DNA of 64,000 nt from Salinisphaera sp. (lineage in GTDB: Bacteria > Pseudomonadota > Gammaproteobacteria > Nevskiales > Salinisphaeraceae). Below, in pieces: positions 12,542 through 49,457 of the stretch. The notes under the pieces are model-generated. The model made no database searches, was not told the DNA's origin, and saw only the letters and a list, made by a program, of their open reading frames with translations. How positions within the stretch are numbered: position 1 is the first letter of the stretch; each line of letters begins with the position of its first letter. The position numbers were made by a program, and so were the translations under genes. The stretch covers positions 5,952 through 69,951 of the forward strand of contig NZ_DASSKM010000085.1 in assembly GCF_035690525.1 (NCBI RefSeq). The letters run 5' to 3'.

Positions 12542-12714
12542 GTTCGCCTCCTGCGATCCCTATCCGTCAAGGTAGTTGTCGCCGGCCGCCTCGTGGTCGA
12601 GACGGCCGCTCTCCGAGCATACCGCGATTCGGCGGCCGGCCTCGATCGCCGGAACAAACCTGCCGGATCAAATCAGTCGCGGTTCAGCCGTCGAAGGGCG
12701 GTTTGCGGACCCTA

Positions 12715-14187: not shown

Positions 14188-14189
14188 GC

Positions 14190-14996
14190 TCAGACACCGA
14201 AGCCGACGAGCGCAGCATGCACGAGTAGCGCGACGATGATCGCCCAGCCGAAGCTGGCCAATGTGCCGATAATCACAATCTCGCTGACCCGGGGCTCACG
14301 TGTGTAGCGAAACCGCAGAATCGATTTTGCCGCGATCACGAAACCGATCGCGTTGAACTGGCCAAGCAGTACGAACAGAAACACCAGCGTACGTTCGAGC
14401 CAGCCGATCCAGGCGCCGGCCCCGGGCAGCTGCGGGCTGCCGGTCTTATCCTCGCTGGTGGCCCGGTCCTCGCCGGCGACCCGGTCCTCGCCGGCGGCCC
14501 GCGCGGAATGAAAACCGAGCATAAGTTGGGCCAGCATTAAATCGCCGGCCCGGGTCGCCAACCAGAAACCGCCGGCGAGCGCGAAGCCGATCGACAGAAA
14601 CTGCGCGCTCGAACCGCCCAGCAGAATCGGCCAGAGCCCGGCCGAAAAAGCATGCGGCCAAAGCACGGCTGCGATGGCGACGAACGTCAGATGCGCGACC
14701 TGATCGATCGCGAACAGCCGCAGCGAACCGAACGGCGTCATCGCCGCCCAGGCCGCGACGCGCGGATGAATTTTGCACGCATCGATGATGCCGTGGGAAC
14801 CGGCAACAAGCGCCACCGCGGCCCAGGCGCCGAGCGACGCCGCGCCGAGCGCGAGCGCTGCCGTGATCGCGACGCAGCCGATATGCAGCGCGAAAATCGT
14901 CGGCCGGTGCTTGGCCACGACCAGACCACGGGTTTGGAACAGGAAGTCGGCGAGGACATGCGCGAACACAAGCGCGACGAGGCTTTTTAGCATCAT
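14190..14996 (-). CDS. DUF3307 family membrane protein
   Basis: AHVLADFLFQT, SH..ID, DQVAHL, G.WIG.LER, GFVIAAKSILRF motifs. Confidence 0.85.
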   Translation of the reverse strand: MMLKSLVALVFAHVLADFLFQTRGLVVAKHRPTIFALHIGCVAITAALALGAASLGAWAAVALVAGSHGIIDACKIHPRVAAWAAMTPFGSLRLFAIDQVAHLTFVAIAAVLWPHAFSAGLWPILLGGSSAQFLSIGFALAGGFWLATRAGDLMLAQLMLGFHSARAAGEDRVAGEDRATSEDKTGSPQLPGAGAWIGWLERTLVFLFVLLGQFNAIGFVIAAKSILRFRYTREPRVSEIVIIGTLASFGWAIIVALLVHAALVGFGV

Positions 14997-15035
14997 GGCG
15001 CGCTCATTCGCCCGGCCACGCCTGGGCGTATCCAG

Positions 15036-15081
15036 ACAGCCATTTTCGGCTGTTTATTTAAAAACAGTCGAAAATGGCTGT
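15036..15081. repeat. 46-bp near-perfect inverted repeat (20-bp arms)
   Basis: acagccattttcggctgttt-atttaa-aaacagtcgaaaatggctgt; one arm mismatch. Confidence 0.85.
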
Positions 15082-15108
15082 TATGGGCGCCGCCGGCCCG
15101 GCATAACC

Positions 15109-15747
15109 TCATGCCCATGCCGATTCGAAAGCCTCGATCGCTTCAAACAATGCATGGCCGCCGGCGCGCGTGAAATGCGTCTGAATCGTCTGCGGCTGGA
15201 CCGACAGCGCGTCGGCCACATCGTTCATCGGCGGCGGCGCCGGGCCGGCCAGGCGCATGAAAATATCCGCCTGGCGCGCGGTCCAGTGCCGGGAACGTTC
15301 GTCGCAAACCGCGAATAGGCCGAGCGCGAGCGCCCGGGCGGCCGACGTATCGAAACCGCCTTCGATACGCCAGAGCCGATGTACGCCCAAGGCTTCCAAA
15401 CCGCGCCCCGAGCGCTCGAACGCCAAGCCGGAGGAGGCGGCCAAACTCGCCCCGGCCTCGGCGGCGCCGATGCCCACGCCGATACGCGTTTCGCCCCGAT
15501 CGCAGGCGAGGCGAACCGCCGCCCGGGCGAACAGACAGGCGCGCAGCGCGTGCGCCGGCGCGTGCAGCCGCATTTGCCAGCCATCGCCGCGAAACCGCTC
15601 ATAGCGCACGTCGGTCTCGCCCGGCCAGGTGCCCATGCGCGCCGCCATATCGGACAGCGCCTGCATGACGGTATCTAGCGCGCGCTCGGATAACGCGGAC
15701 GATTTCACGATATCGCCGGTCAACACACAGAAAATCGGGTCGGCCAT
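15109..15747 (-). CDS. SatD family protein
   Basis: VLTGDIVKSS, RFRGDGWQ, RIGVGIG, SG.AFERSGR.LE, C-terminal HTH-like WTARQ..; RBS GGAG before ATG 15747. Confidence 0.8.
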   Translation of the reverse strand: MADPIFCVLTGDIVKSSALSERALDTVMQALSDMAARMGTWPGETDVRYERFRGDGWQMRLHAPAHALRACLFARAAVRLACDRGETRIGVGIGAAEAGASLAASSGLAFERSGRGLEALGVHRLWRIEGGFDTSAARALALGLFAVCDERSRHWTARQADIFMRLAGPAPPPMNDVADALSVQPQTIQTHFTRAGGHALFEAIEAFESAWA

Positions 15748-15775
15748 AGCTGCTCGTTCTCCCTGATCGCACGGG

Positions 15776-17047
15776 CTAGAAGTCAAAACTGTGCTGCGCG
15801 GCCGCGGGCGGCGCAAATCGCGCGGCGAGCCGTGCGCTGCTCGCCTCGCCGATGCCCGGGTGATGGTTGGCGCAGACTATGAACGGCATGGCCTTCTTGA
15901 CCCCGGCCTTGAGCGCGACCAGGTCTTCGAGCCGCACTTTCTGCCAGCGCCGCAGGGCGAGAATACGGTCGACCGATTTCACGCCGAGCCCCGGTACGCG
16001 CAGCAACCGCTCGCGATCGTCACGATTGAGATTCACCGGAAAATAAGCGCGGTTGCGCAGCGCCCAGCCCAATTTGGGATCGACCTCCAAATCGAGCATA
16101 CCGGCCGCCGCGTCGTCGCCGGCGGTGATCTCGTCGTGGCGATAGCCATAGAAACGAATCAGCCAGTCGGACTGGTACAGCCGGTGCTCGCGGACCAGTG
16201 ACGTGCGCCGCGCCGGCAGCTTCGCCGAGGCGTCCGGAATCGGCGAGAAGGCGGAAAAATAGACGCGCTTCAGCCGATACGACGAATACAAATCGGCCGT
16301 GGTCGCCAGAATCTCGGCGTCGGTCGACGGCTCGGCGCCGATAATCATCTGCGTGGACTGGCCGGCCGGCGCGAAGCGCTCGATCGCCGCGGGTTTGGGC
16401 CGTGCGCTGGTAATACGCCGGGCGGCGCGGCGCGCCTCGGCCTGCTCTTCCCGACGGGCGCGAATACGCGCCATCGAGAGTTTGATGGTGCGATGATCCT
16501 TCTCCGGCGCGAGCTCGCGCAGTGCGACCCGCGTCGGCAGCTCCACGTTGATCGACAGACGATCGGCGTATCGCCCCGCTTCGGCCAATAATTCGCCGTC
16601 GGCGTCGGGAATGGTCTTGAGATGGATATAGCCACGAAAATCGTGCTCGATGCGCAGGCAGCGCGCGACCTCGACCAACCGGGCCATGGTGTAGTCGGCG
16701 GTCTGGATCACGCCCGAGGACAGAAACAGCCCCTCGATATAGTTGCGTTTATAGAAATCCAGGGTCAGATCGACCACTTCCTTGGGCGTGAATCGCGCCC
16801 GGCGCACGTTCGACGAGTTGCGGTTGATGCAGTAGCTGCATTCGTAGATACAGAAATTGGTCAACAGAATTTTGAGCAGCGAGATACAGCGGCCGTCCGG
16901 GGCGTACGCATGGCAGATACCCGAGCCCCCGGCCGAACCGACCCCGCGCCCGCCGAGCGACGAACGCGATGCGGTACCGCTCGAGGCACAGGACGCGTCG
17001 TATTTGGCGGCGTCCGCGAGAATCGCCAGTTTTTCGATCGTCTCCAT
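15776..17047 (-). CDS. Putative DNA modification/repair radical SAM protein (TIGR03916 type)
   Basis: KL.ILADAAKYDASC, C..+DGRCISLLK, CIYECSYC (CxxxCxxC), REHRLYQ.DWL.RFYG, C-terminal HhH LLRVPGLG. Confidence 0.93.
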   Translation of the reverse strand: METIEKLAILADAAKYDASCASSGTASRSSLGGRGVGSAGGSGICHAYAPDGRCISLLKILLTNFCIYECSYCINRNSSNVRRARFTPKEVVDLTLDFYKRNYIEGLFLSSGVIQTADYTMARLVEVARCLRIEHDFRGYIHLKTIPDADGELLAEAGRYADRLSINVELPTRVALRELAPEKDHRTIKLSMARIRARREEQAEARRAARRITSARPKPAAIERFAPAGQSTQMIIGAEPSTDAEILATTADLYSSYRLKRVYFSAFSPIPDASAKLPARRTSLVREHRLYQSDWLIRFYGYRHDEITAGDDAAAGMLDLEVDPKLGWALRNRAYFPVNLNRDDRERLLRVPGLGVKSVDRILALRRWQKVRLEDLVALKAGVKKAMPFIVCANHHPGIGEASSARLAARFAPPAAAQHSFDF

Positions 17048-17066
17048 ACTGTCTATTTATACAGCT
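17047..17066. promoter_or_regulatory. LexA (SOS) box
   Basis: TACTGTCTATTTATACAGCT = CTGT-N8-ACAG with an AT-rich spacer, abutting the radical SAM start codon. Confidence 0.85.
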
Positions 17067-17158
17067 TTTTAGCGATCGGATGCACCCCTTCGTCCCGGGC
17101 TTGCCGCAATCGCCCACCTGTACCAGCATGAAGCCATTCATCCGCGCCGATCGTCGCG

Positions 17159-17584
17159 ATGCTGCGTATTTCCAATACCGTCGTTCTGGGGGAACACGAG
17201 ATCGAATGGTGGGCCGTGCGCGCGCAAGGCGCGGGCGGACAAAAGGTCAACAAGACCAATTCGGCCGTACACCTGCGTTTCGCGATCCAGACATCGTCGC
17301 TGCCCGAGGTTTACAAGACCCGGCTGATGGGGCGTGCGGGCGCCGATCAGCGTTTTACGCGCGACGGCACAATCGTGATCAAGGCCCAGCAGTATCGAAG
17401 CCGGGAAGCCAATTTGGAGGATGCGCGCCGACGGCTGGCCGCGATCGTGGCCGCCGCCGGCCGGACACCGAAAAAACGCCGGCCGACCCGGCCGTCGAAG
17501 GCGGCCCGCCGCAAACGCACCGACGACAAAAAGCGCCGCGGCCGGCTCAAGGTGCTGCGCGGCCGGGGAAGATCTTCGGACTAG
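17159..17584 (+). CDS. arfB: Alternative ribosome rescue peptidyl-tRNA hydrolase
   Basis: RAQGAGGQKVNKTNSAVHLRF (GGQ), basic tail RRPTRPSK..R.R...KK.RG. Confidence 0.93.
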   Translation: MLRISNTVVLGEHEIEWWAVRAQGAGGQKVNKTNSAVHLRFAIQTSSLPEVYKTRLMGRAGADQRFTRDGTIVIKAQQYRSREANLEDARRRLAAIVAAAGRTPKKRRPTRPSKAARRKRTDDKKRRGRLKVLRGRGRSSD

Positions 17585-18531
17585 GAGGCGATCGACTCGT
17601 CGACCGCGTCGGCCCCGAACCCGTGATCGTGGGTCGGCGCGACGCCGAAATAGCGTTTGTACTCGCGCGAAAACTGGGACGCGCTCTGGTAGCCGACCGC
17701 GCTGGCCGCGCCGCTGACGTTGGCCGCGTTCCGAATCAGCAGATCGCGCGCCCGCAACAGGCGGATACGCTTCTGGTATTGCAGCGGCGAGATCCGCGTG
17801 AGTTGCTTGAAGTGGGCATGGAAGCTCGACACGCTCATATGCGCGCGCGCCGCGAGCGCGGGCACCGACAGCGGTAACGCATAATCGGCGCGCAACGTCT
17901 CGATCGCTCCGCCGATCCGCGCGTAGGCGCCCTGGGATTGGAGCAACTGGCGCAGCAGATGCCCCTGCGGCCCGCGCAGGGCCTCGAAGATCACTTCGCG
18001 AATTCGGGCATGGCCGAGCGCCCGCACAGCCGCCGGATCATCCAGGCAATCAAGCAACCGCTCCAACGCCTCGCCGATGGCGCCGTCGAGCGTCACCGCG
18101 GCCATGGGCAAGGTGTCCGCGGCGTGCGCAATGTCCCGGCCGGCCTCGACCGGACCCACGGCGCCCGCGAGTTCGGCCAGCAGTTCGGGCGCGATACGCA
18201 GCGCGGCGCCCAGCAACGGCTCGTCGGCCGAGCCGCCGGTTTCGCACTCGAACGGCAAGGGCATCGCCTGCACCAGGTAATGACCGGCGCCGTAGCGAAT
18301 CACGCGGTCGTCGATAAACCCGGTTTTTTCGCCCTGAACGATGAAGATGAGCCCCGGTTCGTACACGATCGGCTCGCGTGCGCGCCGGCAGTGCGACGCC
18401 ACCAGCGACAGTGCATGCAGCGCCGTGTCGTTGAAGCCGTCATGGCGTATATGGCGTTCGATCGTTCGGACCATGCGGCCGTGTAACGCCGAATCGGACC
18501 TTCTTGTCTGCCGGATCGTCTGCTCGGTCAT
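17581..18531 (-). CDS. AraC family transcriptional regulator (YqhC-like)
   Basis: YEPGL.FI.QG.K N-domain; MS.SSFH.HFK..T..SPLQYQK.+RL, VGY.SASQFSREYKR.FG. Confidence 0.9.
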   Translation of the reverse strand: MTEQTIRQTRRSDSALHGRMVRTIERHIRHDGFNDTALHALSLVASHCRRAREPIVYEPGLIFIVQGEKTGFIDDRVIRYGAGHYLVQAMPLPFECETGGSADEPLLGAALRIAPELLAELAGAVGPVEAGRDIAHAADTLPMAAVTLDGAIGEALERLLDCLDDPAAVRALGHARIREVIFEALRGPQGHLLRQLLQSQGAYARIGGAIETLRADYALPLSVPALAARAHMSVSSFHAHFKQLTRISPLQYQKRIRLLRARDLLIRNAANVSGAASAVGYQSASQFSREYKRYFGVAPTHDHGFGADAVDESIAS

Positions 18532-18724
18532 CACGAAGCCGTACTGCTGAACAGGCATACAATTGTGCACGAACTCGCCCCGGTTACCGCGCCTACGCCG
18601 CCGTCTTTCATAGTTTCGGGCATAAACAAGCCAGAAACGCCTATGGTTTCAACCGGCCGGCGAACCCATCCTGAATATCGACGGCAGGCCGGCGCCTGCA
18701 CTCATCCGATGCAAAGGAGACCCC

Positions 18725-19789
18725 ATGCCTACCGAGACCCAAGCCTACGCCGCGCACGCGGCCGACCAGCCGCTCGAGCACTGGCATTTCGAGCGTCGCG
18801 ATCCGCGGCCGGACGATGTTTCGATCGAGATCCTCTACTGTGGCGTCTGCCACTCGGATTTACACTTTGCCAAGAACGACTGGGGCTTCACCGAATTTCC
18901 GGTCGTGCCGGGCCACGAGATCGTCGGCCGGGTCACGCAGGTCGGCCCCGAGGTCCGCAATTACAAGGAAGGCGATCTGGTCGGCGTCGGCTGCATGGTC
19001 GATTCCTGCCGCGAATGCCAAGCCTGCAACGACGGGCTGGAACAGTACTGCCTGAACGGTTTCACCATGACCTACGGCAGCGAAGATCGCCACGACGGCA
19101 CGATGACCCAGGGCGGCTATTCCAATTTCGTGGTCGTTGCCGAGCGCTTCGTGCTCAGGATGCCCGACGGCATCGACCTGAAATCCGCCGCGCCGCTGAT
19201 GTGTGCCGGCATCACCACCTATTCGCCGCTCAAGCACTACGGCGTCAAACCCGGCCACAAGATCGGCGTGATCGGTATGGGCGGTCTGGGCCATATGGGC
19301 GTCAAGCTCGCCCGGGCGCTGGGCGCAGAAGTCACGGTGTTCACCCGCTCCGAGTCCAAGGTCGCCGAGGCCAAGTCCAACGGCGCCGATCATGTCGTGG
19401 TCTCGACCGACGACGATCAGATGAACGCCGTGGCGGAAACCTTCGACTTCATGCTCGACACGGTGCCGGTCCAGCATCCGATCGATCCGTATCTGGGCGC
19501 GCTGAAGTACGACGGCACTCATATTCTGGTCGGCCTGTTGGACCCGATCGAGCCGGCCATCACCGGCATGAACCTGATCTTCAAGCGCCGCGTGATCGGC
19601 GGTTCGCTGATCGGCGGCATGCCGGAGACCCAGGAAGTGCTCGATTTCTGCGCCGAGCGCGGCATCACCTGCGATGTCGAGATGATCGACATCAACGACA
19701 TCAACCAGGCCTTCGAACGCATGAAAGCGGGCGATGTCCGGTATCGCTTCGTGATCGACATGGCTTCGATGAAACACAAAGCCGCCTAA
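18725..19789 (+). CDS. Zn-dependent NAD(P)H alcohol/aldehyde dehydrogenase (cinnamyl-ADH/YahK type)
   Basis: CGVCHSD, GHEIVG, CRECQAC..G.EQYC, APLMCAGIT, GMGGLGH. Confidence 0.92.
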   Translation: MPTETQAYAAHAADQPLEHWHFERRDPRPDDVSIEILYCGVCHSDLHFAKNDWGFTEFPVVPGHEIVGRVTQVGPEVRNYKEGDLVGVGCMVDSCRECQACNDGLEQYCLNGFTMTYGSEDRHDGTMTQGGYSNFVVVAERFVLRMPDGIDLKSAAPLMCAGITTYSPLKHYGVKPGHKIGVIGMGGLGHMGVKLARALGAEVTVFTRSESKVAEAKSNGADHVVVSTDDDQMNAVAETFDFMLDTVPVQHPIDPYLGALKYDGTHILVGLLDPIEPAITGMNLIFKRRVIGGSLIGGMPETQEVLDFCAERGITCDVEMIDINDINQAFERMKAGDVRYRFVIDMASMKHKAA

Positions 19790-25958: not shown

Positions 25959-26077
25959 GTTCCAGCTATCTGAGACATTAGTCTTATGCCTAGCCTTCGG
26001 CGATGGGCAGGGCCTGCCATCGCGGATATTTTAGACGTAGCTTTTTCTATTTCCCCCTGTATTCAAGGAGATTCGAT

Positions 26078-27511
26078 ATGGCCGGTGCTACTGGTGCTGC
26101 AACATCGACATCGAAATCGACGCCCGAAAGCGTCACGCACGCCGAAATCGTGCCCATGGTCTGGCTGTCCTGCGGCTTGGCCGCCTTGGCCGGCCTGCTG
26201 TTCGGCATGGACATCGGCGTCATATCGGGCGCGCTACCCTTCATCAAGCAGGACTTCAACCTGTCCTCGGCGATGGAAGGCTGGATCGTGTCCTCCATGA
26301 TGGTGGGCGCCGCCATCGGCGCCCTGTCCGCCGGCTCGATCTCCAAGAGCATGGGCCGCAAACGCGCACTGCTGGTCTCGTCGCTGCTGTTCATCGTCGG
26401 CGCGATAATCTGCGTGGTCACGCCCGGGCCGACGCTGCTGTGGATCGGCCGTATCGTGCTCGGGCTGGCGGTGGGCGTGGCCTCGTTCACCGCGCCGCTG
26501 TATCTGTCGGAAGTCACGCCCGAGCGCATCCGCGGCACGACGATCTCGTTTTATCAACTGATGGTGACCATCGGTATTTTGGCCGCCTTCGTCTCCAACC
26601 TGCTGTTCTCTTATATCGAGAGCTGGCGCTGGATGTTCGGCGTGCTGGTGATCCCGGCCGTGCTGCTGTTCTTCGGCGCCCTGGCGGTGCCCAACAGCCC
26701 GCGTTGGCTTGCCGCAAAGGACCGGATCGACGAGGCCCGCAACGTATTGTCCCGGCTGCGTGGCACCTCCGAGGAGGTCGAATACGAGATGGGCGAGATC
26801 CAGGAAGCGATCGAACAGGAGTCCGAGTCGCAGGGTTACGCGCTGTTCAAGCACAACCCGAACTTCCGCCGGTCCGTTTTTCTGGGCATCGCGCTGCAAC
26901 TCGTGCAGCAGTTCACCGGCATGAACGTCATCATGTATTACGCCCCGGAAATCTTTAAGATGTCGGGCTTCGACGGCACGTCGGCCAGTCTTTGGGCGAC
27001 CGTGATCACCGGTCTGACCAACGTGCTGGCCACCTTCATCGCCATCGCCTTCATCGATCGTTGGGGCCGTAAACCGATTCTCTACGCCGGCTTTGCCATC
27101 ATGGCTGTGACCATGGCGTTGCTGAGCTTCATCCTGACGTTCGGCGCCAGCACGGCCTTGCTGCAATACGGCGCGCTGGCGATGGTACTGCTGTTCGTGG
27201 TCGGCTTCGCCATGTCCGCGGGCCCGCTGATCTGGACGCTGTGCGCCGAAATCCAGCCGATTCGGGGCCGGGATTTCGGGATCGGGGCCTCGACCGGCGC
27301 CAACTGGATCGGCAACTTCTGCATCGGCTTCTTCTTCCCGGTCATGATTGCCGGCATCGGCGGGCCGTGGACCTTCGGTATCCTGGCCGCGGTCAACGCC
27401 TTGTTCATCGTGTTCACGCTGTGCCTCGTACCCGAAACCAAAGGCATCTCGCTGGAGAAGATCGAAAAGAACCTGCTGTCCGGCAAGGCGCTGAACAAGA
27501 TCGGCGTATAA
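26078..27511 (+). CDS. Sugar porter family MFS transporter (GalP-like)
   Basis: GLLFGMDIGVISGA, GRKRAL, PLYLSE..P..IRG, QQFTGMNVIMYYAP, VPETKG; RBS AAGGAG before ATG 26078. Confidence 0.92.
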   Translation: MAGATGAATSTSKSTPESVTHAEIVPMVWLSCGLAALAGLLFGMDIGVISGALPFIKQDFNLSSAMEGWIVSSMMVGAAIGALSAGSISKSMGRKRALLVSSLLFIVGAIICVVTPGPTLLWIGRIVLGLAVGVASFTAPLYLSEVTPERIRGTTISFYQLMVTIGILAAFVSNLLFSYIESWRWMFGVLVIPAVLLFFGALAVPNSPRWLAAKDRIDEARNVLSRLRGTSEEVEYEMGEIQEAIEQESESQGYALFKHNPNFRRSVFLGIALQLVQQFTGMNVIMYYAPEIFKMSGFDGTSASLWATVITGLTNVLATFIAIAFIDRWGRKPILYAGFAIMAVTMALLSFILTFGASTALLQYGALAMVLLFVVGFAMSAGPLIWTLCAEIQPIRGRDFGIGASTGANWIGNFCIGFFFPVMIAGIGGPWTFGILAAVNALFIVFTLCLVPETKGISLEKIEKNLLSGKALNKIGV

Positions 27512-27677
27512 CGACCAAGGACCGGCGGCGACGCGGCGGTTTCGTCGCGCCGTCGCCTGCCTGCTGCTAGAGGCTCGAACACGAGCAACGTCTGGGATCG
27601 CGCCCGCGACAACCGGGCCGCCGAATATTGCGACCACGCCCTGCCGATTTTCGTACCAACCTTCGGCTTCTTCGGAA

Positions 27678-27719
27678 TCAGCTACCGCCCTGGTTTCGAC
27701 ACACGTCGAAACGCGCCAT
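27678..27719 (-). pseudogene. ccdB: ccdB toxin stub (13 codons then stop)
   Basis: MARFDVCRNQGGS*; ATG overlaps the ccdA stop (TGATG). Confidence 0.6.
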
Positions 27720-27943
27720 CAGAACTGGCGATGCTGGGATAGCGGAAGGCTGTTGGAGTCGACATACTCGTTAGAACTCTTCAAGGCAGCTTCATTATCC
27801 TAAAGCCACTGCTCCCGTTTTGAATGTCTCACGGCTTCAGCAATACCTGCCTCAACGGACCTTGATGCGTTGGCCCCAAGTGCCTTCGCTTCCTGGAACG
27901 AGGCATTATCAAGAGACAGGTTTGTTGGCCTTCTCGTGGGCAT
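27719..27943 (-). pseudogene. ccdA: CcdA antitoxin with in-frame amber stop
   Basis: Manual translation MPTRRPTNLSLDNASFQEAKALGANASRSVEAGIAEAVRHSKREQWL*DNEAALKSSNEYVDSNSLPLSQHRQF*; TAG at 27800-27802. Confidence 0.82.
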
Positions 27944-28302
27944 TACCGTCGAGTTCCTTCCTTACGTCCGAGACTCTCGGCCAGAAATGAGGAAACAAGA
28001 GCATTCATGCTAACGCCTTCCTGCCGCGCGCGAGCAGTAAGGCGCGCATGCAAACTACGCGGAACTCTGGCAATAAATTTTCCACTGGGAAGCTCACCGG
28101 GATTAGGCACTTCGCGCCCGGCCTCTCTTGCTGCCTGGAGCCACGCCGCGTAGGCATCTTTACCGTTTGCAATAGCTTCCTCCGGTGTTTCACCATCGGA
28201 AATGCACCCTGGCAAATCCGGAAAGGAAATTAGCCAGCCGCCACCTTCTTCGTTGGCCAGAGGCCGTAACTCGAACGGGTAATCAAATTCCTGCTGCATC
28301 AC
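27943..28302 (-). CDS. hicB: HicB family antitoxin
   Basis: EEGGGWLISFPDLPGCISDGET.EEA, C-terminal SGKF..R+P.SLH..L...A..EGVSMN. Confidence 0.9.
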   Translation of the reverse strand: MMQQEFDYPFELRPLANEEGGGWLISFPDLPGCISDGETPEEAIANGKDAYAAWLQAAREAGREVPNPGELPSGKFIARVPRSLHARLTARARQEGVSMNALVSSFLAESLGRKEGTRR

Positions 28303-28538
28303 TGAACTCCGATATCTTCCAGTAGAGCAAGAAACTGGGTAATGTAAACCGGCTTAATAGGACGTTTGAACGGCACGGTAACTGCTAATTCCGAATCCGG
28401 GTGCAGAAAAACAAAGTGGCTGCCACCCGTTTTTCGAACATCAACGCCATGTCTCTGGGCAACCGTCTCTAAGGACTCCATACGCCAATCCTTCGGATTA
28501 CGACGCATCTTCTCCAGAATTTTGTCGGCCTTACTCAT
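28299..28538 (-). CDS. hicA: HicA family toxin
   Basis: 79 aa; GGSH motif, +TVP..+PIKPVY+; overlaps the hicB start. Confidence 0.85.
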   Translation of the reverse strand: MSKADKILEKMRRNPKDWRMESLETVAQRHGVDVRKTGGSHFVFLHPDSELAVTVPFKRPIKPVYITQFLALLEDIGVQ

Positions 28539-28585: not shown

Positions 28586-28680
28586 GCCTAATGCCCAATG
28601 CCCAAGCTCACTTGCCGCCAGAGCAGCCGAAGGCTGCGGAGGGACCAAACCGCGAAGCGGTTTGGCAGTCAACTGCAGAG
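28586..28680 (-). mobile_element. Degenerate integron attC site
   Basis: L''-like GCTCTGCAGTTG, two internal hairpins, L'-like CAAGTGAGC, then ATTGGGC ATTAGGC in place of GTTRRRY; R'' absent. Confidence 0.6.
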
Positions 28681-29033
28681 CCTAGTGGAAAACGTGTCTG
28701 GAAACGTGTCTGACCCCTTTCCGTGCACAGAAAACGTGTCTGGAAAACGTGTCTGACCCCTTTCCGAGACCCTTTCCGGGAAAACGTGTCTGACCCCTTT
28801 CCGCCTTTCCGGGAAAACGTGTCTGACCCCTTTCCGAATGCAATTTCTGGAATGGTTTGGTCGTCTGGCGGGTATGGCAGCCAGACGAACGCGGCATCTT
28901 CCTTGTTAGGCTGGTCTGTCTGAACGACTACCCCCAGCGAAGTAGCAATATCAAAAGCTGTAACCTTGACGGTTGTTCGGCTTGGTTTTCCGAATTCAGA
29001 CGTCAGGCGATCAATAACCTGTAACTTGAACAT
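28608..29033 (-). pseudogene. Cassette-borne hypothetical gene whose 3' half is replaced by the tandem repeat
   Basis: RBS GAGG and ATG directly after an attC core; about 65 ordinary residues, then KGSDTFSRK repeat translation running into the attC. Confidence 0.65.
28687..28836. repeat. Irregular tandem direct repeat, unit GGAAAACGTGTCTGACCCCTTTCCG
   Basis: Six copies of core AAACGTGTCT, four near-full 24-25-nt units and two partial CCTTTCCG pieces, with no unique spacers. Confidence 0.92.
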
Positions 29034-29065
29034 TTAACCTCACAACAATAAAGAGATATCGCGCC

Positions 29066-29137
29066 GCCTAACGCTTGAGCTCAGCCGCCGGCAGCCCGCG
29101 TAGCGGGATGACGGTCGGCTGCAGCGATTTGTTAGCG
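29066..29137 (-). mobile_element. Intact integron attC site (72 bp)
   Basis: Minus strand CGCTAAC-AAATC-GCTGCAGCCG...CGGCTGAGC-TCAAGC-GTTAGGC: R'', L'' with extrahelical G, L', R'; the upstream gene's TAA lies in R''. Confidence 0.88.
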
Positions 29138-29794
29138 CCTGCTGTTATCCTCGGTGACCGGGTGCTCGCCAATCGAGCATGGTAACTCTTCAAGCAATTC
29201 GCTAGTGTGATATTCAAGTGCTATTTCCCCTTTTGTCAGGCGCTCTGTCCAGTATCGGCCAACTAACTTTCGCTTTGGCTTTTCAATAATCCTAAACACC
29301 ACCGAACCGTCGTGTGGAGTACTTCTTTCACTTAAGCTAACAAGCGGTTTACTTGTGTACGAATACGCGAATTCCTTTAACTGGCGATCAGGATCTATCA
29401 GAAACCCCTCCGAAAAGGAGCGGCTTTCCATTTCTCCAGTTCTCATGACACAACTTAGATGGAAGAATGACTGTGATACGTTCAGCATTACGGGTATTGG
29501 TGGTGGTTTCTCGCCGGTTTGTGGATTCTTCCAGTCAGAATAAATGCACCCCATCCATGTTCCGCTTAGGTTGGGGAACGGAACCAGCCACCCACGAAAT
29601 AATTTGAACTCCCACCCCCATTTGACGAACACCGCTATCAACAAAAGATCAATGCTTACGACTTTCGGAATCAACCTGAAGAAGTCCTTGGCTTTTGATA
29701 GATCTAGCCCATTAAGATATGCAAGAGAAAACCACACGATAGCGGACGCGCCAATCAATAAGTACATTGAGCTCCGTAACGTCACGTTGCGCAT
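29132..29794 (-). CDS. cap15: CBASS 2TM beta-strand-rich membrane effector (Cap15 / S-2TM-beta type)
   Basis: Two N-terminal TM helices, W...PNLSGTW.G, +.Q.+..+S..M.T.E..S.S, Y.Y.S.P, H.G, L.GRYWT.R.T.G. Confidence 0.82.
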   Translation of the reverse strand: MRNVTLRSSMYLLIGASAIVWFSLAYLNGLDLSKAKDFFRLIPKVVSIDLLLIAVFVKWGWEFKLFRGWLVPFPNLSGTWMGCIYSDWKNPQTGEKPPPIPVMLNVSQSFFHLSCVMRTGEMESRSFSEGFLIDPDRQLKEFAYSYTSKPLVSLSERSTPHDGSVVFRIIEKPKRKLVGRYWTERLTKGEIALEYHTSELLEELPCSIGEHPVTEDNSRR

Positions 29795-30669
29795 TATTTA
29801 AACCCAAAATGATTCCAAGCCGCTTTGGCGAAGTCACGTCCATCTTCGCGTGACCAGTCTTGAGACGGATAAAATAGATAGAAACACTCGTTCGCTTCGA
29901 CCCACCGCCCATTAGTCGGCTCTTCACCCTGAAGCTGCTCCCAAATGTGTACAAGCATCCCTCGAAGGCGATCCGTCCAAGTCGACCGTGCGAATATTGT
30001 ATCCAGACAGTTATATGCTAGGCATTCAACGAAGAATGACGGCAATTCTCGAAACTCGTCACCCTCAGCCATAACGTTCTCGATACGTTTTAGCAACCGC
30101 GCGCCCCTTTTATAGGAGTAGCCTGTGCGCTTATTTTTAGCGATCCCATAATCCAACTGTTGAACTGGATAGTTGACCAAGCTACTTCCGTCAGTTTTGA
30201 AAATTTTGGTCCCCGGGCGAACTTCATTTTGTAGATAATATTTATAGCTAAAGCACGGAACTACATCAGCATCGACTCGGGAAGATCCAGAATTTATCTG
30301 TATTGCGGTCGATCCGCTACTATCCACGTTTTCACCAAACTTTGCTTTCAGGGAAGCAAGCAGTTCAGATCTGAGTTTTGTGGGAGTCCAAACGCCCTCA
30401 TATTTGTTGCCAGGCGGATGGAGCCCTTGTTCTGCTTCCTCCCAGTAGAGAACCTCCGTGCACTCGACAGCAATATCCACGTCGCTATCAGCCCGAACGT
30501 TGGTGTTGTTGGCATAGGACCCTTTCGCATAGATTTTCAGGTCACAATTATTGAACGTGGTGTGTGCATCCACGGCTTGGCGAATCATCCGCTCAGTACG
30601 TTCTTGCTTATCCTGCTCAGTATCACTCGAAGGTGATGTCCATCTAGTAAGTTGCTCTTCCAAACTCAT
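29794..30669 (-). CDS. CD-NTase (cGAS/DncV-like nucleotidyltransferase, CdnE-like)
   Basis: GSYANNTNVRADSDVDI (GS..DxD), RVDADVVP third Asp, NYP.Q..+.G..KN..T, PSF.+ECL.YN; TAATG-coupled to the effector. Confidence 0.9.
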   Translation of the reverse strand: MSLEEQLTRWTSPSSDTEQDKQERTERMIRQAVDAHTTFNNCDLKIYAKGSYANNTNVRADSDVDIAVECTEVLYWEEAEQGLHPPGNKYEGVWTPTKLRSELLASLKAKFGENVDSSGSTAIQINSGSSRVDADVVPCFSYKYYLQNEVRPGTKIFKTDGSSLVNYPVQQLDYGIAKNKRTGYSYKRGARLLKRIENVMAEGDEFRELPSFFVECLAYNCLDTIFARSTWTDRLRGMLVHIWEQLQGEEPTNGRWVEANECFYLFYPSQDWSREDGRDFAKAAWNHFGFK

Positions 30670-30685
30670 TGATCCCCCTTTTAAG

Positions 30686-30750
30686 CGCTAACGCCAAGTA
30701 GACGACATATATCTAGTCCTATATATATCCCATCCATATCTATATATCTC
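30686..30750 (-). mobile_element. attI-like primary recombination site
   Basis: Core GTTAGCG (exact complement of the cassette's R'' CGCTAAC), preceded by an AT-rich tract with three GATATAT direct repeats and no attC-type L' arm. Confidence 0.6.
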
Positions 30751-31050
30751 CAACGATGCGAGCGGTCAGTTCGAACTCGGCCGCTATACCATAAGGCAGC
30801 ACCCAGGCGCGTTCCGCCGGCTGCCAGCGTCCACCCGCTTGTCGGACCCGTTCTCGAAGGTCTCGTTCTTCGTAAGCGATTCGGACGAGCACGGGCTCAT
30901 CTGTCGGCCGCTGCATCAAATGCTACTCCCGGCTATTCGCCCGGTATCGCTGTCGTAGCGATAGCGGACGCAAACCAGCCTGTCGCCATACTTCCGAACC
31001 AATTGTTTGGTCCCATTCTGGCCCGGCTTGAGATGCAATCGGGTCTCCAC
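30740..31050 (-). pseudogene. Frameshifted small hypothetical protein (LKPGQ.GTK..YGDRLVCVRYRYD type)
   Basis: GTG start with RBS; METRLHLKPGQNGTKQLVRKYGDRLVCVRYRYD.. then in a second frame PVLVRIAYEERDLRERVRQAGGRWQPAERAWVLPY..IVGDI*. Confidence 0.7.
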
Positions 31051-31329
31051 GGCGTCCCCTCGCCTCGATCTTGATTCGACCGTACCCCGAACGCGCGGCT
31101 TATTGAAGCCGTTAAAGCGCGGTCAGTGCACTATACAATAATAACGTGTTGCAATAATTGAATTTTCAAGAATTGGAAATATGCACGCCGGTACCGCCGC
31201 CTCGCACCAATGCGCGACAAATGCTGAAGAAGTGGATCGACCGACACTACGTTGTCGCGGATGAGCCAGTCGCTCGGCGGCCACGCCTGGGCGGCGTTAT
31301 GCCCCGCGCCATCGCGACACGCTGGAAGA

Positions 31330-33057
31330 CTACCGCCCCCACCAATTAGTCCGGCCCAAATCCACGACTTCATCGCCCCGCCCGTTCATGACCGCGCGCA
31401 GCATGTAGAGCGAGAAGCCGCGGGCCTGTTTGGCCTCGATCTTGGGCGGCATCGACAGTTCCTGTTTGGCGGTACGCACATCGACTACGACCGGGCCGTC
31501 GTGTTCGAAGGCGCGCTTGAGCGCTTCGTCGAGATCGGCCGAGGCGGTGACCTGGATACCGCGAATGCCGAGCGATTCGGCCAGTTTGGCGAAGTCGACC
31601 CGCGGAATGTCGGTGGTGGAATCGACATAACCGGCCGCTTTCATTTCCATGGCGACGAAGCCGAGCGATTCGTTGTTGTAGACGACGACCTTCACCGGCA
31701 GCTTCTCGACGGCCAGCGTGATCAGATCGCCCATGAGCATGGTCACACCGCCGTCGCCGGCCAGCGCCACCACCTGGCGTTCCGGATAGGCGACCTGCCA
31801 ACCGAGCGCGGCCGGCACGGCCACCGCCATCGAACCGTGCATGAACGAGCCGGTCAACCTGCGTTCGCGGGTCATGTGAATATAGCGCGCGGCCCAGACG
31901 GTCGGCGTGCCCACATCGGTGGTGAACACGGCGTCGTCGTGCGCCAGCGCCGAGACGCGGGCGGTCAGATACTGGGGGTGCAACGGCTGGTCGTCGGCGC
32001 GCGGCGTGGCCAGATCGTCGAGATTTTCGCGCGCTTTCTTGTAGTGCGACTGGCAGGCGTCAAGAAACTTGGTGCTCGCGTTTTGTTCGAGTTTGGGAAC
32101 GAGCGCCGCCAGCGTGGGCCCGATATCGCCGACCAGCCCCATCGTTAGCGGGCTGCGTCGGCCGAGGTGCGAGCCGCGGATATCGATTTGCACGATATGG
32201 CCGTGCGCGGGGAAGAATTCCCGGTACGGGAAGTTCGTGCCCAGCATGATCAGCAGATCGCATTCGCGCATGGCGTGATAGCCCGACGAGTAGCCGATCA
32301 GGCCGGTCATGCCGACATCGTAGGGGTTGTCGTATTCCAGCGATTGCTTGCCGCGCAGCGCATGCACGATCGGCGCCTTGATGCGCTCGGCAAGGGCCAG
32401 CACTTCGTCGTGATAGCCCTCGCAGCCGTAACCGCCGAGAATGGTGATCTTCGACGCCGCGTTGAGATGCCCGGCCAACACGTCGAGCGCGTCGTTCGGC
32501 GGCACCACGCTCGGGCGCACCGGCGGCTGCCAGCGCAGCGAATGCTCGGGGGCTTCGGACAACGCCACATCGCCGGGCAACACGATGACCGATACCGAGC
32601 GGTTGACGATCGCGCTGCTCATCGCGGCTTCCAGCACCTGCGGTATCTGGTCCGGGTTGGAAATCAACTCGCAGTAATCGCTGCATTCGATAAACAGATT
32701 CTGCGGGTGCGTTTCCTGAAAATAGCCGAGCCCGATCTCGGATGATGGAATCTGGGCGGCCACGGCCAGCATCGGCACATTGGCGCGCTGGGCCTCGAAC
32801 AGGCCGTTGATCAGATGCAAATTGCCCGGCCCGCAGGAGCCGGCACAAACCGCCAATCCGCCATGCGCATCGGCCTCGCCGGCGGCCGCGAGTGCCGCGA
32901 CCTCTTCGTGGCGCACGCCGATCCAGCGGATTTTCTCCCGCCTGCGCAGCGCTTCGGTAAAGCCGTTGAGCGAATCGCCCGGCAGACCCCAGACGTTCGC
33001 TACGCCGGCCTGGATGAGCAGATCGGCCAGCACATCGGCGATCGTGTTCTTGGCCAT
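31330..33057 (-). CDS. poxB: Pyruvate dehydrogenase (quinone) / pyruvate oxidase
   Basis: GDSLNG, RHEE, GSCGPGNLHLINGL, FQETHP, GDGG..M..G+L ThDP motif. Confidence 0.93.
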   Translation of the reverse strand: MAKNTIADVLADLLIQAGVANVWGLPGDSLNGFTEALRRREKIRWIGVRHEEVAALAAAGEADAHGGLAVCAGSCGPGNLHLINGLFEAQRANVPMLAVAAQIPSSEIGLGYFQETHPQNLFIECSDYCELISNPDQIPQVLEAAMSSAIVNRSVSVIVLPGDVALSEAPEHSLRWQPPVRPSVVPPNDALDVLAGHLNAASKITILGGYGCEGYHDEVLALAERIKAPIVHALRGKQSLEYDNPYDVGMTGLIGYSSGYHAMRECDLLIMLGTNFPYREFFPAHGHIVQIDIRGSHLGRRSPLTMGLVGDIGPTLAALVPKLEQNASTKFLDACQSHYKKARENLDDLATPRADDQPLHPQYLTARVSALAHDDAVFTTDVGTPTVWAARYIHMTRERRLTGSFMHGSMAVAVPAALGWQVAYPERQVVALAGDGGVTMLMGDLITLAVEKLPVKVVVYNNESLGFVAMEMKAAGYVDSTTDIPRVDFAKLAESLGIRGIQVTASADLDEALKRAFEHDGPVVVDVRTAKQELSMPPKIEAKQARGFSLYMLRAVMNGRGDEVVDLGRTNWWGR

Positions 33058-34889: not shown

Positions 34890-36072
34890 GGTCGTCACCG
34901 GCTGGCGGATGCCGGCCGAAACCGTGGCGCAAGCCCGGGTCTGGATGGGTTTTCCGCCGGTCGGGCCGACCGCCGGCGAAAACGCCGACGACATAGCCGA
35001 GGCTCGACGCGCCTGGGCCGCCGTGGCCCACGCCATCGCCGAGTTCCAGCCGGTGACGATGCTGGTCGACCCGGCCGATGAGGACATCGCGCCGCGCTAT
35101 GTCTCGGCGGCGGTCGAACGCGTGACCGTGCCGCTCGACGATGCCTGGCTGCGCGATATTGGGCCGAGTTTCGTGCTCGATGACGACGGCGCGCTGGGTG
35201 CGGTGAACTGGCGCTTCAACGGTTGGGGCCGGCGCGAATGGGCGCGCTGGGAACGCGACGATCGCGTGGCGAGCACGATCGCGCGCCTCGCCGGCGCGGC
35301 GCGTATCGATTCCGATCTGGTCAACGAGGGCGGCGGCATCGCCGTCGACGGCGCCGGCACGGTGTTGCTCACCGACACGGTCCAACGCGATCCGCGCCGC
35401 AACCCCAGGCTTTCGCGGGCGGACGTGGAAGCCGAAATGGCCCGCACGCTCGGCGCCGATCACGCCATCTGGCTGGCCCGTGGGCTACACCGCGACGCCG
35501 AGCGCTTTGGCACCTTCGGCCATGTCGACATCGTGGCCGCGCTGGCCTCGCCGGAGTGCGTGGTCGTACACGACCAGCGCGATCCCGGCCACCCCGATCA
35601 CGCGATCAGCCGCGAAACTAAGCGCGTATTCGAATCGGCCGCCACGGCCGCCGGCGGTGCCTGGCGCATCGCGGCCTTGCCCGCGCCGCGGCGGCTGCGC
35701 GATGCCCACGGCTTCGTCGACTACAGCTATATCAATCATCTGCCGATCAACGGGGCGGTGATCGTGGGCACCTTCGACGACCCGGCCGACGCCGAAGCCC
35801 GCTCGATTCTGGCCGAGCTGTATCCGGGCCGGCGCATCGTCGGCGTGGACGCCCGCGCGATCTTCGCGCGCGGCGGCGGCGTCCACTGTATTACGCAGCA
35901 ACAGCCTCGGAGCACACAGGCGCAGGTTGGGGCCTGTTGCCGCTTCATACGACGCCGCGCCGGCGGCCGCCCGAATGTATTCGAGCTGTCGCAAGACAAG
36001 GCGCAGCGGGCGTACGGTAGTCATTCTACCGTAGCGCGCTGCAACGCTAGATTGCGGCCCATAAATAATTAA
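34876..36072 (+). CDS. aguA: Agmatine deiminase family protein
   Basis: RMPAE, DDAW.RD.GP, W.FNGWG, EGGGI.VDG.G, GHVD, YSYIN, GGGVHCITQQQP. Confidence 0.9.
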   Translation: MAMSEVVTGWRMPAETVAQARVWMGFPPVGPTAGENADDIAEARRAWAAVAHAIAEFQPVTMLVDPADEDIAPRYVSAAVERVTVPLDDAWLRDIGPSFVLDDDGALGAVNWRFNGWGRREWARWERDDRVASTIARLAGAARIDSDLVNEGGGIAVDGAGTVLLTDTVQRDPRRNPRLSRADVEAEMARTLGADHAIWLARGLHRDAERFGTFGHVDIVAALASPECVVVHDQRDPGHPDHAISRETKRVFESAATAAGGAWRIAALPAPRRLRDAHGFVDYSYINHLPINGAVIVGTFDDPADAEARSILAELYPGRRIVGVDARAIFARGGGVHCITQQQPRSTQAQVGACCRFIRRRAGGRPNVFELSQDKAQRAYGSHSTVARCNARLRPINN

Positions 36073-36094
36073 CATGGGGCCCCCGGCCCTTCGG

Positions 36095-36195
36095 GTTGCG
36101 GCCCCAAATCGCGCCATCCGGCGTTGCAGAGCTTGACCGCAGAATGACTGCGGTCGGCGCTCTGCGCCTTGGCTGACACGATTTGGGGTTGCAAC
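36095..36195. repeat. Nested long hairpin (about 100 bp), REP/MITE-like
   Basis: Outer arms gttgcggccccaaatcg / cgatttggggttgcaac; inner gcagagc..gaccgcag-aatg-actgcggtc..gctctgc. Confidence 0.7.
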
Positions 36196-44582: not shown

Positions 44583-45161
44583 TTAGAACGTGGGCGGGGT
44601 GACGGCGCTGACCACGACGCAGAGTTCGTCGAAGGGGTTGCGCATCCGGTGCGGGCGGCGGCTGTCGAAATAATAGGCGTCGCCGGCTTCCAGAATGCTG
44701 ACTTCGCCGTCGACGGTCAGCTCGAGCCGCCCGGCCACGACCACGCCGCCCTCTTCCGCGGCGTGCTGGTAGGGCGGTTCGCCGGTATCCGCGCCGGGCG
44801 CATAGCGCTCGTGGAGAATCATCATCGCCGAGCCGCCGAGATTACGCCCGACCTGGCGATAGGACAGCGACACGCCGTTGGCGAGTTCGACCAGCTCGTC
44901 CGCGCGAAATACCACCGGCGAAGCATCCGGCAACGGGTCGGAAAAAAACGCGCTCATGGTGGTGTCGAGCGCCTCGAGCACGGCTTTGAGCGAGCTGACC
45001 GATGGGCTGTGCCGCCCGCGCTCGATCAGCGAGATGGATACGTGGCTGACCCCGCAGCGGCGTGCGAGCTCGCGGATCGACAATTCCTTGCTTTGGCGAA
45101 GCTGCTTAAGCCGTACTCCGGTCGCCGGCTGGGTGGATGTGTCCCCCAACACATACTCCAT
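44583..45161 (-). CDS. XRE-HTH + cupin regulator (PuuR-like)
   Basis: LS.RELA.R.GVS...IS.IE.G..SPSV.SL, H..EE.G.V..G.+E+.V, GD.YYF.S..PH..RN. Confidence 0.88.
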   Translation of the reverse strand: MEYVLGDTSTQPATGVRLKQLRQSKELSIRELARRCGVSHVSISLIERGRHSPSVSSLKAVLEALDTTMSAFFSDPLPDASPVVFRADELVELANGVSLSYRQVGRNLGGSAMMILHERYAPGADTGEPPYQHAAEEGGVVVAGRLELTVDGEVSILEAGDAYYFDSRRPHRMRNPFDELCVVVSAVTPPTF

Positions 45162-45226
45162 TTGCTATTCGATCAATAAGATATACCGGCTTGACGCACA
45201 AATGAAGCCCATGCAACGTTGCACGG

Positions 45227-45257
45227 AAATAAAAAGACGGGGCCCGAGGGCCCCGTC
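45227..45257 (-). terminator. Intrinsic terminator after aceA
   Basis: gacggggccc-ga-gggccccgtc stem followed on the minus strand by TTTTTATTT. Confidence 0.8.
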
Positions 45258-45303
45258 CAGCCGCGGCGGTCGAAGTCACCGCGGTCCCAACACCGTCGCC
45301 AGA

Positions 45304-46902: not shown

Positions 46903-47357
46903 GATGGGCTCCCTCTTGCTAAGTAGCATTGCACAATGACTGATATTCCGGAAATGATGATTTTCCGAAAGCGTGGTTGTCATTCTAAGAGCATGCCTAG
47001 AATATAAATATGAAATGCCGCCTATTTCCGGCATTCATAAAATGAATACACCAAGATAATCGCCCTTAACGCGCTGATTTCAGAGACAGTTTGGTAACGA
47101 AACGCATCCCTGCTGTTTCCGGATGCTACCCCACATCAGGCTGTCGCTAATCAAGTGCAACCCAGCCTGGACGGCGTCCCGGCCCCGGGTCTCGTGACAA
47201 GGCCTGCCCGAGCGGCCGGCGATCGTAGCTTCCGCGCAATCCAAGCCACCCAGGCTATGCCGTAAGGAGCATGCCGTATAGGAGCATGCCGTATATCGGC
47301 ACTGCCCCTAGCGTTCTATGGTGAGTTGTGTACAGAGTACCCGTCTCGGGATTCGTC

Positions 47358-48455: not shown

Positions 48456-48569
48456 TTAACGTGAAACAAAGGCAGACACAACCCTGCCTCAAAGTTTTTT
48501 TTTCGGGCGCTCTGCCACGTTATGGCCGTTCCATACAGCTTATAGGTATGAAACGGCTGAGAGGGAAAA

Positions 48570-49313: not shown

Positions 49314-49457
49314 TTTTAGGCACACTTGGGCGAAACTAACCGCTTTGCGACAGTTCATTTAATATGAATTCGGACGCGATAAAATAGAGCGACGTATTCT
49401 TATTTTCGTTTATTTCTCATTCAAAATATATGGTTAGCGCTGCTGTCGGGACTGGGA

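Follow-up and report, generated by a model that had tools for sequence, protein, structure and literature searches.

Evidence for a two-gene type I CBASS carried as an integron gene cassette next to an attI-type site in a Salinisphaera-like bacterium

Results

The 64-kb stretch of DNA analysed here (contig NZ_DASSKM010000085.1; hereafter the window) contains, at positions 29072–30691 of the minus strand, a unit that is, in our view, very probably an integron gene cassette, with a complete type I cyclic-oligonucleotide-based anti-phage signalling system (CBASS) of two genes as its cargo. According to this reading, the host is a Salinisphaera-like gammaproteobacterium with a sedentary chromosomal integron located downstream of poxB, and the cassette is the one that lies nearest to the attI; the integrase of this integron has been lost, and its other cassettes have decayed.

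The unit of 1,620 bp runs from the TTAGCG that follows the crossover G (30692) to the G of the R' box, and its G + C content is 0.479 as compared with 0.636 for the window. On the minus strand, the G at 30692 is followed by TTAGCGCTTAAAAGGGGGATCA, giving the start G|TTAGCG at 30692|30691–30686. Only two open reading frames (ORFs) are found inside the boundaries. The ORF of a cGAS/DncV-like nucleotidyltransferase (CD-NTase; 29794–30669) has its ATG at a distance of 23 nt from the crossover, preceded by a AAGGGGGA ribosome-binding site, and its TAA stop overlaps the ATG of the effector ORF (29132–29794) in the sequence TAATG. The TAA stop of the effector (29134–29132) lies, in turn, inside the R'' box CGCTAAC (29137–29131) of a 72-bp attC (attC1), and this heptamer is the exact reverse complement of the GTTAGCG at the start of the cassette. 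A first-pass annotation, made from the letters alone, had described a precisely bounded two-gene cassette of about 1.6 kb that begins at G|TTAGCG and has its effector stop inside the complementary R'' of a canonical 72-bp attC. All of its coordinates and sequence details were correct, and the comparison with related loci presented below upheld both the G|TT boundary and the attC.

The CBASS genes

The upstream gene (29794–30669, minus strand) codes for a clade-E CD-NTase (CdnE-like) of 291 aa, which matches the PADLOC CBASS cyclase profile PDLC00794 over its full length (E=1e-135). In a sequence search of the PDB, the closest solved structures were those of EfCdnE, ClCdnE, and a cyclic dipyrimidine nucleotide synthase (E=3e-47 to 9e-46). 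The catalytic motifs are intact: the protein contains the residues GS (50–51), DxD (63, 65), a third acidic motif DAD (133–135), the lid-3 motif QDW (270–272), and an Asn in VNYP, and GS 50–51, D63/D65, and D133/D135 are invariant across 26 homologues. In the alignment with EfCdnE, Q270-D-W272 of the window enzyme is the counterpart of the lid-3 motif R279-x-W281, and the Asn of lid 1 is conserved. The (R/Q)xW motif is known to restrict the donor pocket of CdnE to pyrimidines, and the type I operons of such CdnE enzymes also code for Cap15, an effector with two transmembrane segments (2TM) and a beta-barrel that disrupts the inner membrane (PMC10442399). Because the QxW lid 3 and the Asn lid 1 are those of the pyrimidine-specific CdnE enzymes, the signal is predicted to be a cyclic di-pyrimidine, e.g. 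c-di-UMP.

The downstream gene (29132–29794, minus strand) codes for a Cap15-type effector of 220 aa. Residues 72–194 match Pfam PF18153 Cap15_CD_rec (E=6e-17; 62.5 bits, the curated cut-off being 31.2), and the protein also matches the PADLOC 2TM effector profile (E=4e-86). Its hydropathy profile shows two N-terminal hydrophobic segments (residues about 8–30 and 37–66) ahead of the C-terminal cyclic-dinucleotide receptor beta-barrel domain (72–194), a combination that, judged from the sequence, is the one expected of a Cap15 protein. The start that gives 220 aa is supported by the conservation of the first nine residues in homologues (the tblastn alignments begin at residue 1); a gene caller applied to the metagenome copy chose Met10 instead, which shortens the effector to 211 aa. 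A sequence search with the effector against solved structures gave no match at E≤0.01.

Genes for Cap2/Cap3, HORMA/TRIP13, or other accessory CBASS proteins were not found in the unit, and the system is therefore assigned to type I. The neighbours of the CBASS pair are a toxin–antitoxin pair and unknown ORFs with no PADLOC hits. The PADLOC and Pfam matches thus agree with the annotation, which had recognized a complete type I CBASS with a CdnE-like enzyme and a 2TM-beta effector, had suggested the use of PADLOC, and had made its proposal dependent on Cap15 homology of the effector.

The attC site

attC1 (29066–29137, minus strand) is intact, exactly 72 bp long, and carries the R'' box described above and the R' box GTTAGGC (29072–29066). 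Its + strand folds as a single hairpin (z=-2.7) with paired R boxes and an unpaired central spacer of 5/4 nt. The single-base bulges, T and C, are located solely on the 3' arm of this strand, and we therefore regard the + strand as the recombining bottom strand, which is consistent with the minus-strand orientation of the genes. Imperfect inverted repeats, AAC/GTT triplets, a spacer, and extrahelical bases, the features by which an attC is recognized, are thus all present in attC1.

A total of 1,206 plasmid records contain a site 83–84% identical to attC1 over 66–68 nt. Two of these were inspected, and in both the site stands directly after cmlA1 or cmlA5 in class 1 integrons. The attC of cmlA1/cmlA5 has the same orientation after the gene and identical L''/L' arms (AACAAATCGCTGCAGCCGACC ... 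CGGCTGAGCTCA.GCGTTAG), whereas its R'' box is GCCCAAC instead of CGCTAAC, and the central loop, the cargo, and the host are different. In the soil and cave metagenomes that hold the locus, the depth of attC1 was 230–640x as compared with approximately 10x for its flanks, and dozens of metagenome contigs matched attC1 and diverged exactly at 29066–29072 and 29124–29136. An attC family common to many cassettes would be expected to behave in this way.

An ungapped palindrome scan missed attC1 because of the bulged bases, and constrained folding and a covariance model were used instead. The model was built from 28 attC sites that were aligned with MAFFT; the structure was supplied by hand and checked by pair counts, RNAalifold having returned no structure for this alignment. 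In the shared structure of the 28 sites, 85% of the cells are paired, compared with 26–42% when the partners are slid, and eight of the nine stem pairs covary. When the model was run unfiltered on both strands of the 64 kb, it returned only two sites: attC1, which is the only strong attC (68.8 bits, attC1 being itself part of the training set), and a weak site, attC2, 379 nt away. A candidate third attC at 27654–27758, proposed by a folding heuristic, was dropped, as it was unsupported by the covariance model.

Related loci

The comparison set consisted of 80 metagenome loci and a few loci from look-ups, with CD-NTases 59–89% identical to that of the window. The full gene pair was present in 47 non-redundant related loci (46 metagenome loci and L007). 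In 24 of the 47, or in 25 loci when the window is included, a GTTAGCG-type heptamer located 21–29 nt before the ATG is exactly complementary to the heptamer that contains the effector stop; one of the 24, L007, shows the covarying pair GTTAGTG/CACTAAC. The pairwise identity (26 loci) rose from 0.29 over the 30 nt that precede the crossover G to 0.72 over the 20 nt that follow.

With the covariance model, the related loci yielded 49 attC hits at E≤0.01, and every one of these shares the strand of the genes. An attC starting at the effector stop was detected in 19 of 46 loci, and another attC ending just before the cassette in 8 of 45. Consecutive attCs obey the rule that the R' end of one element and the R'' box of the next are complementary; L015, for instance, shows CCCTAAC after GTTAGGG and GCCTAAC after GTTAGGC. 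The upstream partners of the cassette across the loci are different attCs or attI-type sites. The same unit is thus present in differing flanks, with the homology ending at the crossover and with a start that is complementary to R''. From these loci, together with the similarity to the cmlA attC, the hairpin structure, the repeat behaviour in metagenomes, and the covariance model, we conclude that the unit 29072–30691 is a cassette occurring in many arrays. A tblastn search against plasmids revealed no close homologue (best 41%), and no more than two loci, both of them distant, came from a scan of genome contigs with a single protein.

The closest relative of the cassette (89% aa identity; L006:2745–4600) directly follows ilvD; its attI region resembles that of Salinisphaera sp. 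Q1T1-3 (see below), and it has no intI. Its attC, of 54 nt, is quite different but has kept the same R'', and a fragment of an IS91-family transposase follows. Some CdnE–Cap15 copies (L008, L016, L017, L034, L062, and others) lack an attC; they have mutated relics of the start (ATTAGCG, GTGAGCG, and GTTATTA) and CGCTAAC at the effector stop, and look like fossilized cassettes. One attC-less copy is found in an enterobacterial island, beside an unrelated integrase.

The attI-type site

The segment upstream of the cassette (30692–30745, minus strand) consists of the crossover G at 30692, the core GTCGTCTACTTGGC (30693–30706), and AT-rich GATATAT repeats up to approximately 30745, and it does not fold like an attC. 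This flank, which reads ...GTCGTCTACTTGGCG|TT, precedes a different cassette in Salinisphaera sp. SPP-AMP-43 (locus L093). Four loci, i.e. the window, L093, L006, and a locus of Salinisphaera sp. Q1T1-3 (L098), have the 11-nt core TACTTGGCGTT without a single change; in L098, it belongs to the site beside intI.

In L098, poxB is followed by a divergent gene for a 324-aa tyrosine recombinase, IntI, which is 52% identical to IntI1 over 315 aa (E=3e-103). The attI region of this locus ends ...GCCGTATACTTGGCG|TTGGGT (attI ...TATACTTGGCG|TTGGGT), and the attC of the first cassette begins with ACCCAAC, which is complementary to GTTGGGT. The core TACTTGGCG|TT is common to the window and this site, which lies approximately 125 nt from intI at the same poxB locus. 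The upstream flank in L006 is likewise homologous to the attI region of L098. In L093, the homology to the window extends from poxB through a 120-aa ORF and the AT-rich stretch to ...GTCGTCTACTTGGCGTT and stops at window position 30690. Beyond this breakpoint, L093 has TTGGGC, a gene for an OLD-family nuclease, and an attC (42 bits, not a training sequence) whose R'' GCCCAAC complements the start TTGGGC; the next cassette contains a VRR-NUC gene, starts with TTAGAT, and has a degenerate attC that begins ATCTAAC.

Based on the comparisons with L093, L098, and L006, we identify 30692–30745 as an attI-type site and the CBASS cassette as the one nearest to it; the array thus appears, as far as sequence can tell, to have an attI at its head. 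We had initially judged the array to be a plain cluster of attC sites lacking integron-integrases (CALIN) and the "first position" of the cassette, as given by the annotation, to be unsupported. This judgement was reversed by the Salinisphaera relatives: the upstream flank is of the attI type, and its core stands beside intI at the same poxB locus in Q1T1-3.

The L098 locus contains, at 11353–19728, a complete chromosomal integron directly after poxB, with at least 13 attCs in 7 kb and an array that runs off the locus. The 13 attCs detected by the model are all on one strand, and five of them are 79–85% identical to the attC2 of the window. The first two cassettes in SPP-AMP-43 (L093:11429–14264) carry an OLD-family ATPase/nuclease (PADLOC Old, 3e-26) and a VRR-NUC protein. 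Since these two cassettes are at the same attI-type site, defence-like genes lead the array in a second Salinisphaera, too.

The remainder of the array

The second cassette (28586–29071, minus strand) is decayed. It contains an ORF without a family assignment (28608–29033), four copies of a 20-mer, and the degenerate attC2 (approximately 28586–28687; covariance hit at 28593–28687, 14.2 bits, E=0.6). The consensus of the attC2 family, obtained from metagenome contigs, begins with GCCTAAC, as required by the TTAGGC that follows attC1. Compared with this consensus, attC2 has its R'' arm replaced, an R' box ATTAGGC instead of GTTAGGC, and a 7-bp duplication. The 20-mer, AACGTGTCTGACCCCTTTCC, is present in four exact copies at 28703–28835 (+ strand) as part of a unit of approximately 25 nt with irregular spacing. 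The repeats run through the 3' half of the ORF 28608–29033 and replace the R'' arm of attC2, and they were found nowhere else in the window or in the 99 fetched loci.

The next genes, all on the minus strand, are hicA (28299–28538; Pfam HicA_toxin, 2e-6), hicB (27943–28302; Pfam HicB_lk_antitox, 1e-11, and HicB, 4e-10), and a truncated ccdA (27800–27943; Pfam CcdA, 5e-11, 43 of 71 profile positions). Toxin–antitoxin pairs such as hicA/hicB are typical cassette cargo. The stop of hicB is fused to the start of ccdA (TAATG) with no attC hit between them, and two toxin–antitoxin cassettes appear to have been fused by a deletion (27800–28302). A 13-codon ORF at 27678–27719 resembles the start of CcdB, and we take it to be, perhaps, a remnant of ccdB. 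No intI adjoins the array in the window; L098 has IntI at the same locus. A strict finder might call the array of the window a single attC and not a cluster.

Metagenome junctions

In metagenome X1, one contig spans the attI and the cassette. In metagenome X2, the assembly graph branches within 30690–30695: a 54-nt contig (depth 5.6) joins the cassette start to the attI flank, a 52-nt contig (depth 4) joins it to GCTCCGGCGGCAACTGAGCTTG|GCGTT, i.e. to the 3' end of another attC, and a 33-nt contig continues from the attI flank into a different sequence. The Logan contig L002 from sample X2 begins at GGCGTTAGCG, and both of the Logan contigs break off within attC1. Junctions like those seen in X2 would be expected from the shuffling of cassettes or from a mixture of strains that differ in their arrays. 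A joint between 28678 and 29098, present in X1 and X2, was considered as a trace of cassette excision and rejected, since it is off the crossover points; we read it as a mosaic attC in the community.

Discussion

The above results make it very probable that the unit is an integron cassette, but several observations weigh against our interpretation. No IntI homologue was found in the 64-kb window by tblastn with IntI1 (best E=0.33), and intI was also missing within reach of the 80 related metagenome loci. There is one intact attC only: in attC2, which reaches a score of 14 bits, the R'' arm is lost and an A replaces the crossover G. The bulged bases of an attC are commonly described as a T and a G. 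The T and C of attC1 differ from this usual pair, with the arms of the cmlA attC being identical to those of attC1, and the model that detects attC1 was trained with attC1 in the set. The small ORF upstream of the attI-type site is split, the X2 junction variants rest on contigs of 33–54 nt, and a crude scan of 28900–31400 revealed no consensus match to a sigma-70 promoter on either strand. Expression of the cassette possibly depends on read-through, which might come from the upstream small ORF. Because the 64 kb contain no intI, the array is decayed, and no promoter was found, the annotation's further statements that the cassette is the most recently acquired, the best expressed, and mobile are points that we can only infer.

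Several of these observations fit the possibility, which we regard as real though rather unlikely, that the gene pair entered the chromosome as an integron cassette and is now fixed and possibly silent, as one more pair of genes in a chromosomal island. The lack of intI in 64 kb, the degenerate neighbouring cassettes, the split upstream ORF, and the lack of a promoter-like site all point in this direction, and the attC-less copies with relics of TTAGCG in L008, L016, L017, L034, and L062 show that such fossilization does happen. Here, however, both ORFs are intact and retain all catalytic motifs, attC1 and the G|TT core are intact as well, and X2 contains junctions of the cassette start with two different partners on its upstream side. 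An integrase could, furthermore, act from elsewhere in the genome or the community, the attC depth of 230–640x indicating that integrons are abundant there.

It is far less probable that the cassette was inserted at a non-canonical chromosomal site (attG or a secondary site) instead of attI, in which case "first position" would be meaningless. The site has no adjoining integrase, and its flank, as we take it, does not resemble attI1. A genomic attG insertion of a cassette has been cited by Kieffer et al. (10.1101/2024.07.02.601719). Against such an insertion, the same core of 11–15 nt ending in G|TT is located approximately 125 nt from intI at the same poxB locus in L098, and the same flank is followed in L093 and L098 by different cassettes, each of which obeys the rule of complementarity between start and R''. 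Finally, the hairpin at 29066–29137 directly follows the last gene, and a simple scan lists a small terminator-like site at 29074–29061, so that one might take the hairpin for an ordinary terminator or palindrome and the CBASS pair for part of a generic genomic island. This explanation is already contradicted, and we consider it hardly tenable, in view of the 83–84% identity to the cmlA attC, the occurrence of the site as a high-copy repeat with copies that diverge precisely at R' and R'', the exact complementarity of start and R'' in 25 loci with one covarying case, and the strand-consistent attC arrays around the homologues.

If the CBASS works like its characterized relatives, phage infection would activate the clade-E CD-NTase, which would make a cyclic dinucleotide, predicted to be a cyclic di-pyrimidine. 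This signal would bind to the C-terminal beta-barrel of the Cap15-type effector, and the effector would then oligomerize via its two transmembrane helices and disrupt the inner membrane, with the cell dying before phage release. As regards mobility, integron biology suggests that the + strand of attC1 would fold into the recombining hairpin, that an integron integrase would cut between G and TT, and that the cassette would move between attI and attC sites as a circle of 1.62 kb with the junction ...CTCAAGCG|TTAGCGCTT...; in this genome, the cassette would depend on an integrase provided by another source.

Kieffer et al. screened integron cassettes of unknown function and found that one of them, brc135 (formerly gcu135), has two ORFs resembling type I CBASS; recombination of its attC shows the strand bias that is characteristic of such sites, and brc135 protects against phage, including HK544 (10.1101/2024.07.02.601719). 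The supplementary sequence of gcu135 starts with TTAGCGTTTTAGGAGGGTAAAGCAATG and ends in an attC beginning CGCTAAC. It can be aligned end to end with the window cassette (67% nucleotide identity) and with L058 (93%), figures obtained from text degraded by optical character recognition. The two-gene content, the TTAGCG start, the effector stop inside R'' CGCTAAC, and the directly following attC are shared, and by sequence comparison gcu135/brc135 and the window cassette are of the same cassette family. The attC of gcu135/brc135, on the other hand, belongs to another family (L058/L044 type, 78 bp) than the cmlA-like 72-bp site found here, and its authors reported no mobile-integron context, whereas the window copy is at the attI-type site of an integrase-less chromosomal integron. 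The window cassette is thus a new, divergent member of a published and tested cassette family in a new host and context.

The window pair resembles the operons of EfCdnE, ClCdnE, and LpCdnE with Cap15 (PMC10442399) in its clade-E motifs, the Asn of lid 1, the (R/Q)xW of lid 3, and the 2TM + beta-barrel partner, but it is clearly divergent from EfCdnE, and those operons were not described as integron cassettes. At the ilvD locus of Xanthomonas, intI has been lost or inactivated, and the arrays were kept at the ancestral site (10.1101/2025.06.18.660453). The window is similar to these integrons and to CALINs (PMC4889954) in keeping an array at the ancestral locus without intI; it differs from them in the retained attI-type site, the small conserved ORF in the place of intI, and the single intact attC. 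Among the cassettes studied by Darracq et al., 783 complete defence systems were found, none of which had more than two components (10.1101/2024.07.02.601686). The Vibrio chromosomal integrons of that study share with the window the systems of at most two genes, the toxin–antitoxin cassettes alongside, and the importance of the first position for expression; they belong to another host group, and the portion of the article available to us includes CBASS only via a domain match and not as a CBASS cassette.

The window cassette extends, by an environmental example with well-defined boundaries, the recent finding that anti-phage systems are stocked in integrons. The CdnE–Cap15 cassette family is widespread, with 41% of the related loci in diverse metagenomes keeping a detectable attC and others looking fossilized, and the loss of the integrase from an integron does not preclude an intact cassette at its attI-type site. 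The unit also represents a compact, portable CBASS of 1.6 kb with a predicted cyclic di-pyrimidine signal, and the loci described in the next section point to a possibly recurrent integrase-less platform.

The small ORF upstream of the attI-type site

The segment 30740–31050 (minus strand) contains a split remnant of the 120-aa ORF of L093 (the ORF120 family), in pieces of 44 aa and 59 aa that align by tblastn with 86% and 74% identity, respectively. It is co-oriented with the cassettes, and approximately 54 nt are missing relative to L093. The window and SPP-AMP-43 carry ORF120 where Q1T1-3 has intI. ORF120 matches no Pfam family; its family comprises proteins of 115–120 aa with 1,349 homologues, mostly on contigs under 3 kb.

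ORF120, with the AT-rich GATATAT stretch directly downstream of it, precedes an attI-type G|TT and attC-bounded cassettes, with which it is co-oriented, in three genomes, i.e. at 30740–31050 (minus strand) of the window, L093:11016–11378, and L099:10001–10348, and no intI was found within reach in these three loci. L099 is from a metagenome-assembled genome (MAG) of the Betaproteobacteria; its cassettes obey the complement rule, and the second of them carries DUF6602. First cassettes were classified in two of the ORF120 loci, and both contain defence genes: CBASS in the window and the OLD-family nuclease in SPP-AMP-43. With three cases at hand, we suggest only as a speculation, and one that we hold to be unlikely, that ORF120 and the GATATAT stretch form a recurrent integrase-less docking platform for integron cassettes. 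If this is true, through a trans-acting integrase or a role of ORF120 in recombination or expression, the platform would represent a new variant of integron organization that puts anti-phage cassettes first.

Flanking locus and other features of the window

The GC profile shows a low-GC island at approximately 27.6–30.75 kb (0.48–0.52 as compared with 0.64 for the window), with one edge near 27.6–27.7 kb. Every gene of the island is on the minus strand. It is bounded by a gene for a major facilitator superfamily (MFS) sugar transporter (26003–27511, + strand; Pfam Sugar_tr, 5e-128) and by poxB (31330–33057, minus strand), both being flanking core genes. PoxB, a ubiquinone-dependent pyruvate dehydrogenase, shares 87% identity with its counterpart in Salinisphaera sp. 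S4-8 and 78–84% with those in other Salinisphaera, and the synteny with L093 and L098 shows that poxB marks a chromosomal locus common to Salinisphaera genomes. The MFS transporter gene is syntenic with poxB in a locus from a Salinisphaera MAG (L096), which has poxB and the same MFS and phosphotransferase system genes with no integron between them.

The G + C content is also moderately lower (0.56–0.60) at 45000–57000. The genes of this region are ordinary metabolic ones (isocitrate lyase family, FabH-like, short-chain dehydrogenase/reductase, PhaC, and patatin-like lipase), and the region was ruled out as a mobile island. A near-perfect palindrome of 91 nt (CTGCAACG...CGTTGCAG), unscored by the attC model, is located at 36039–36129, just after an agmatine deiminase-like gene.

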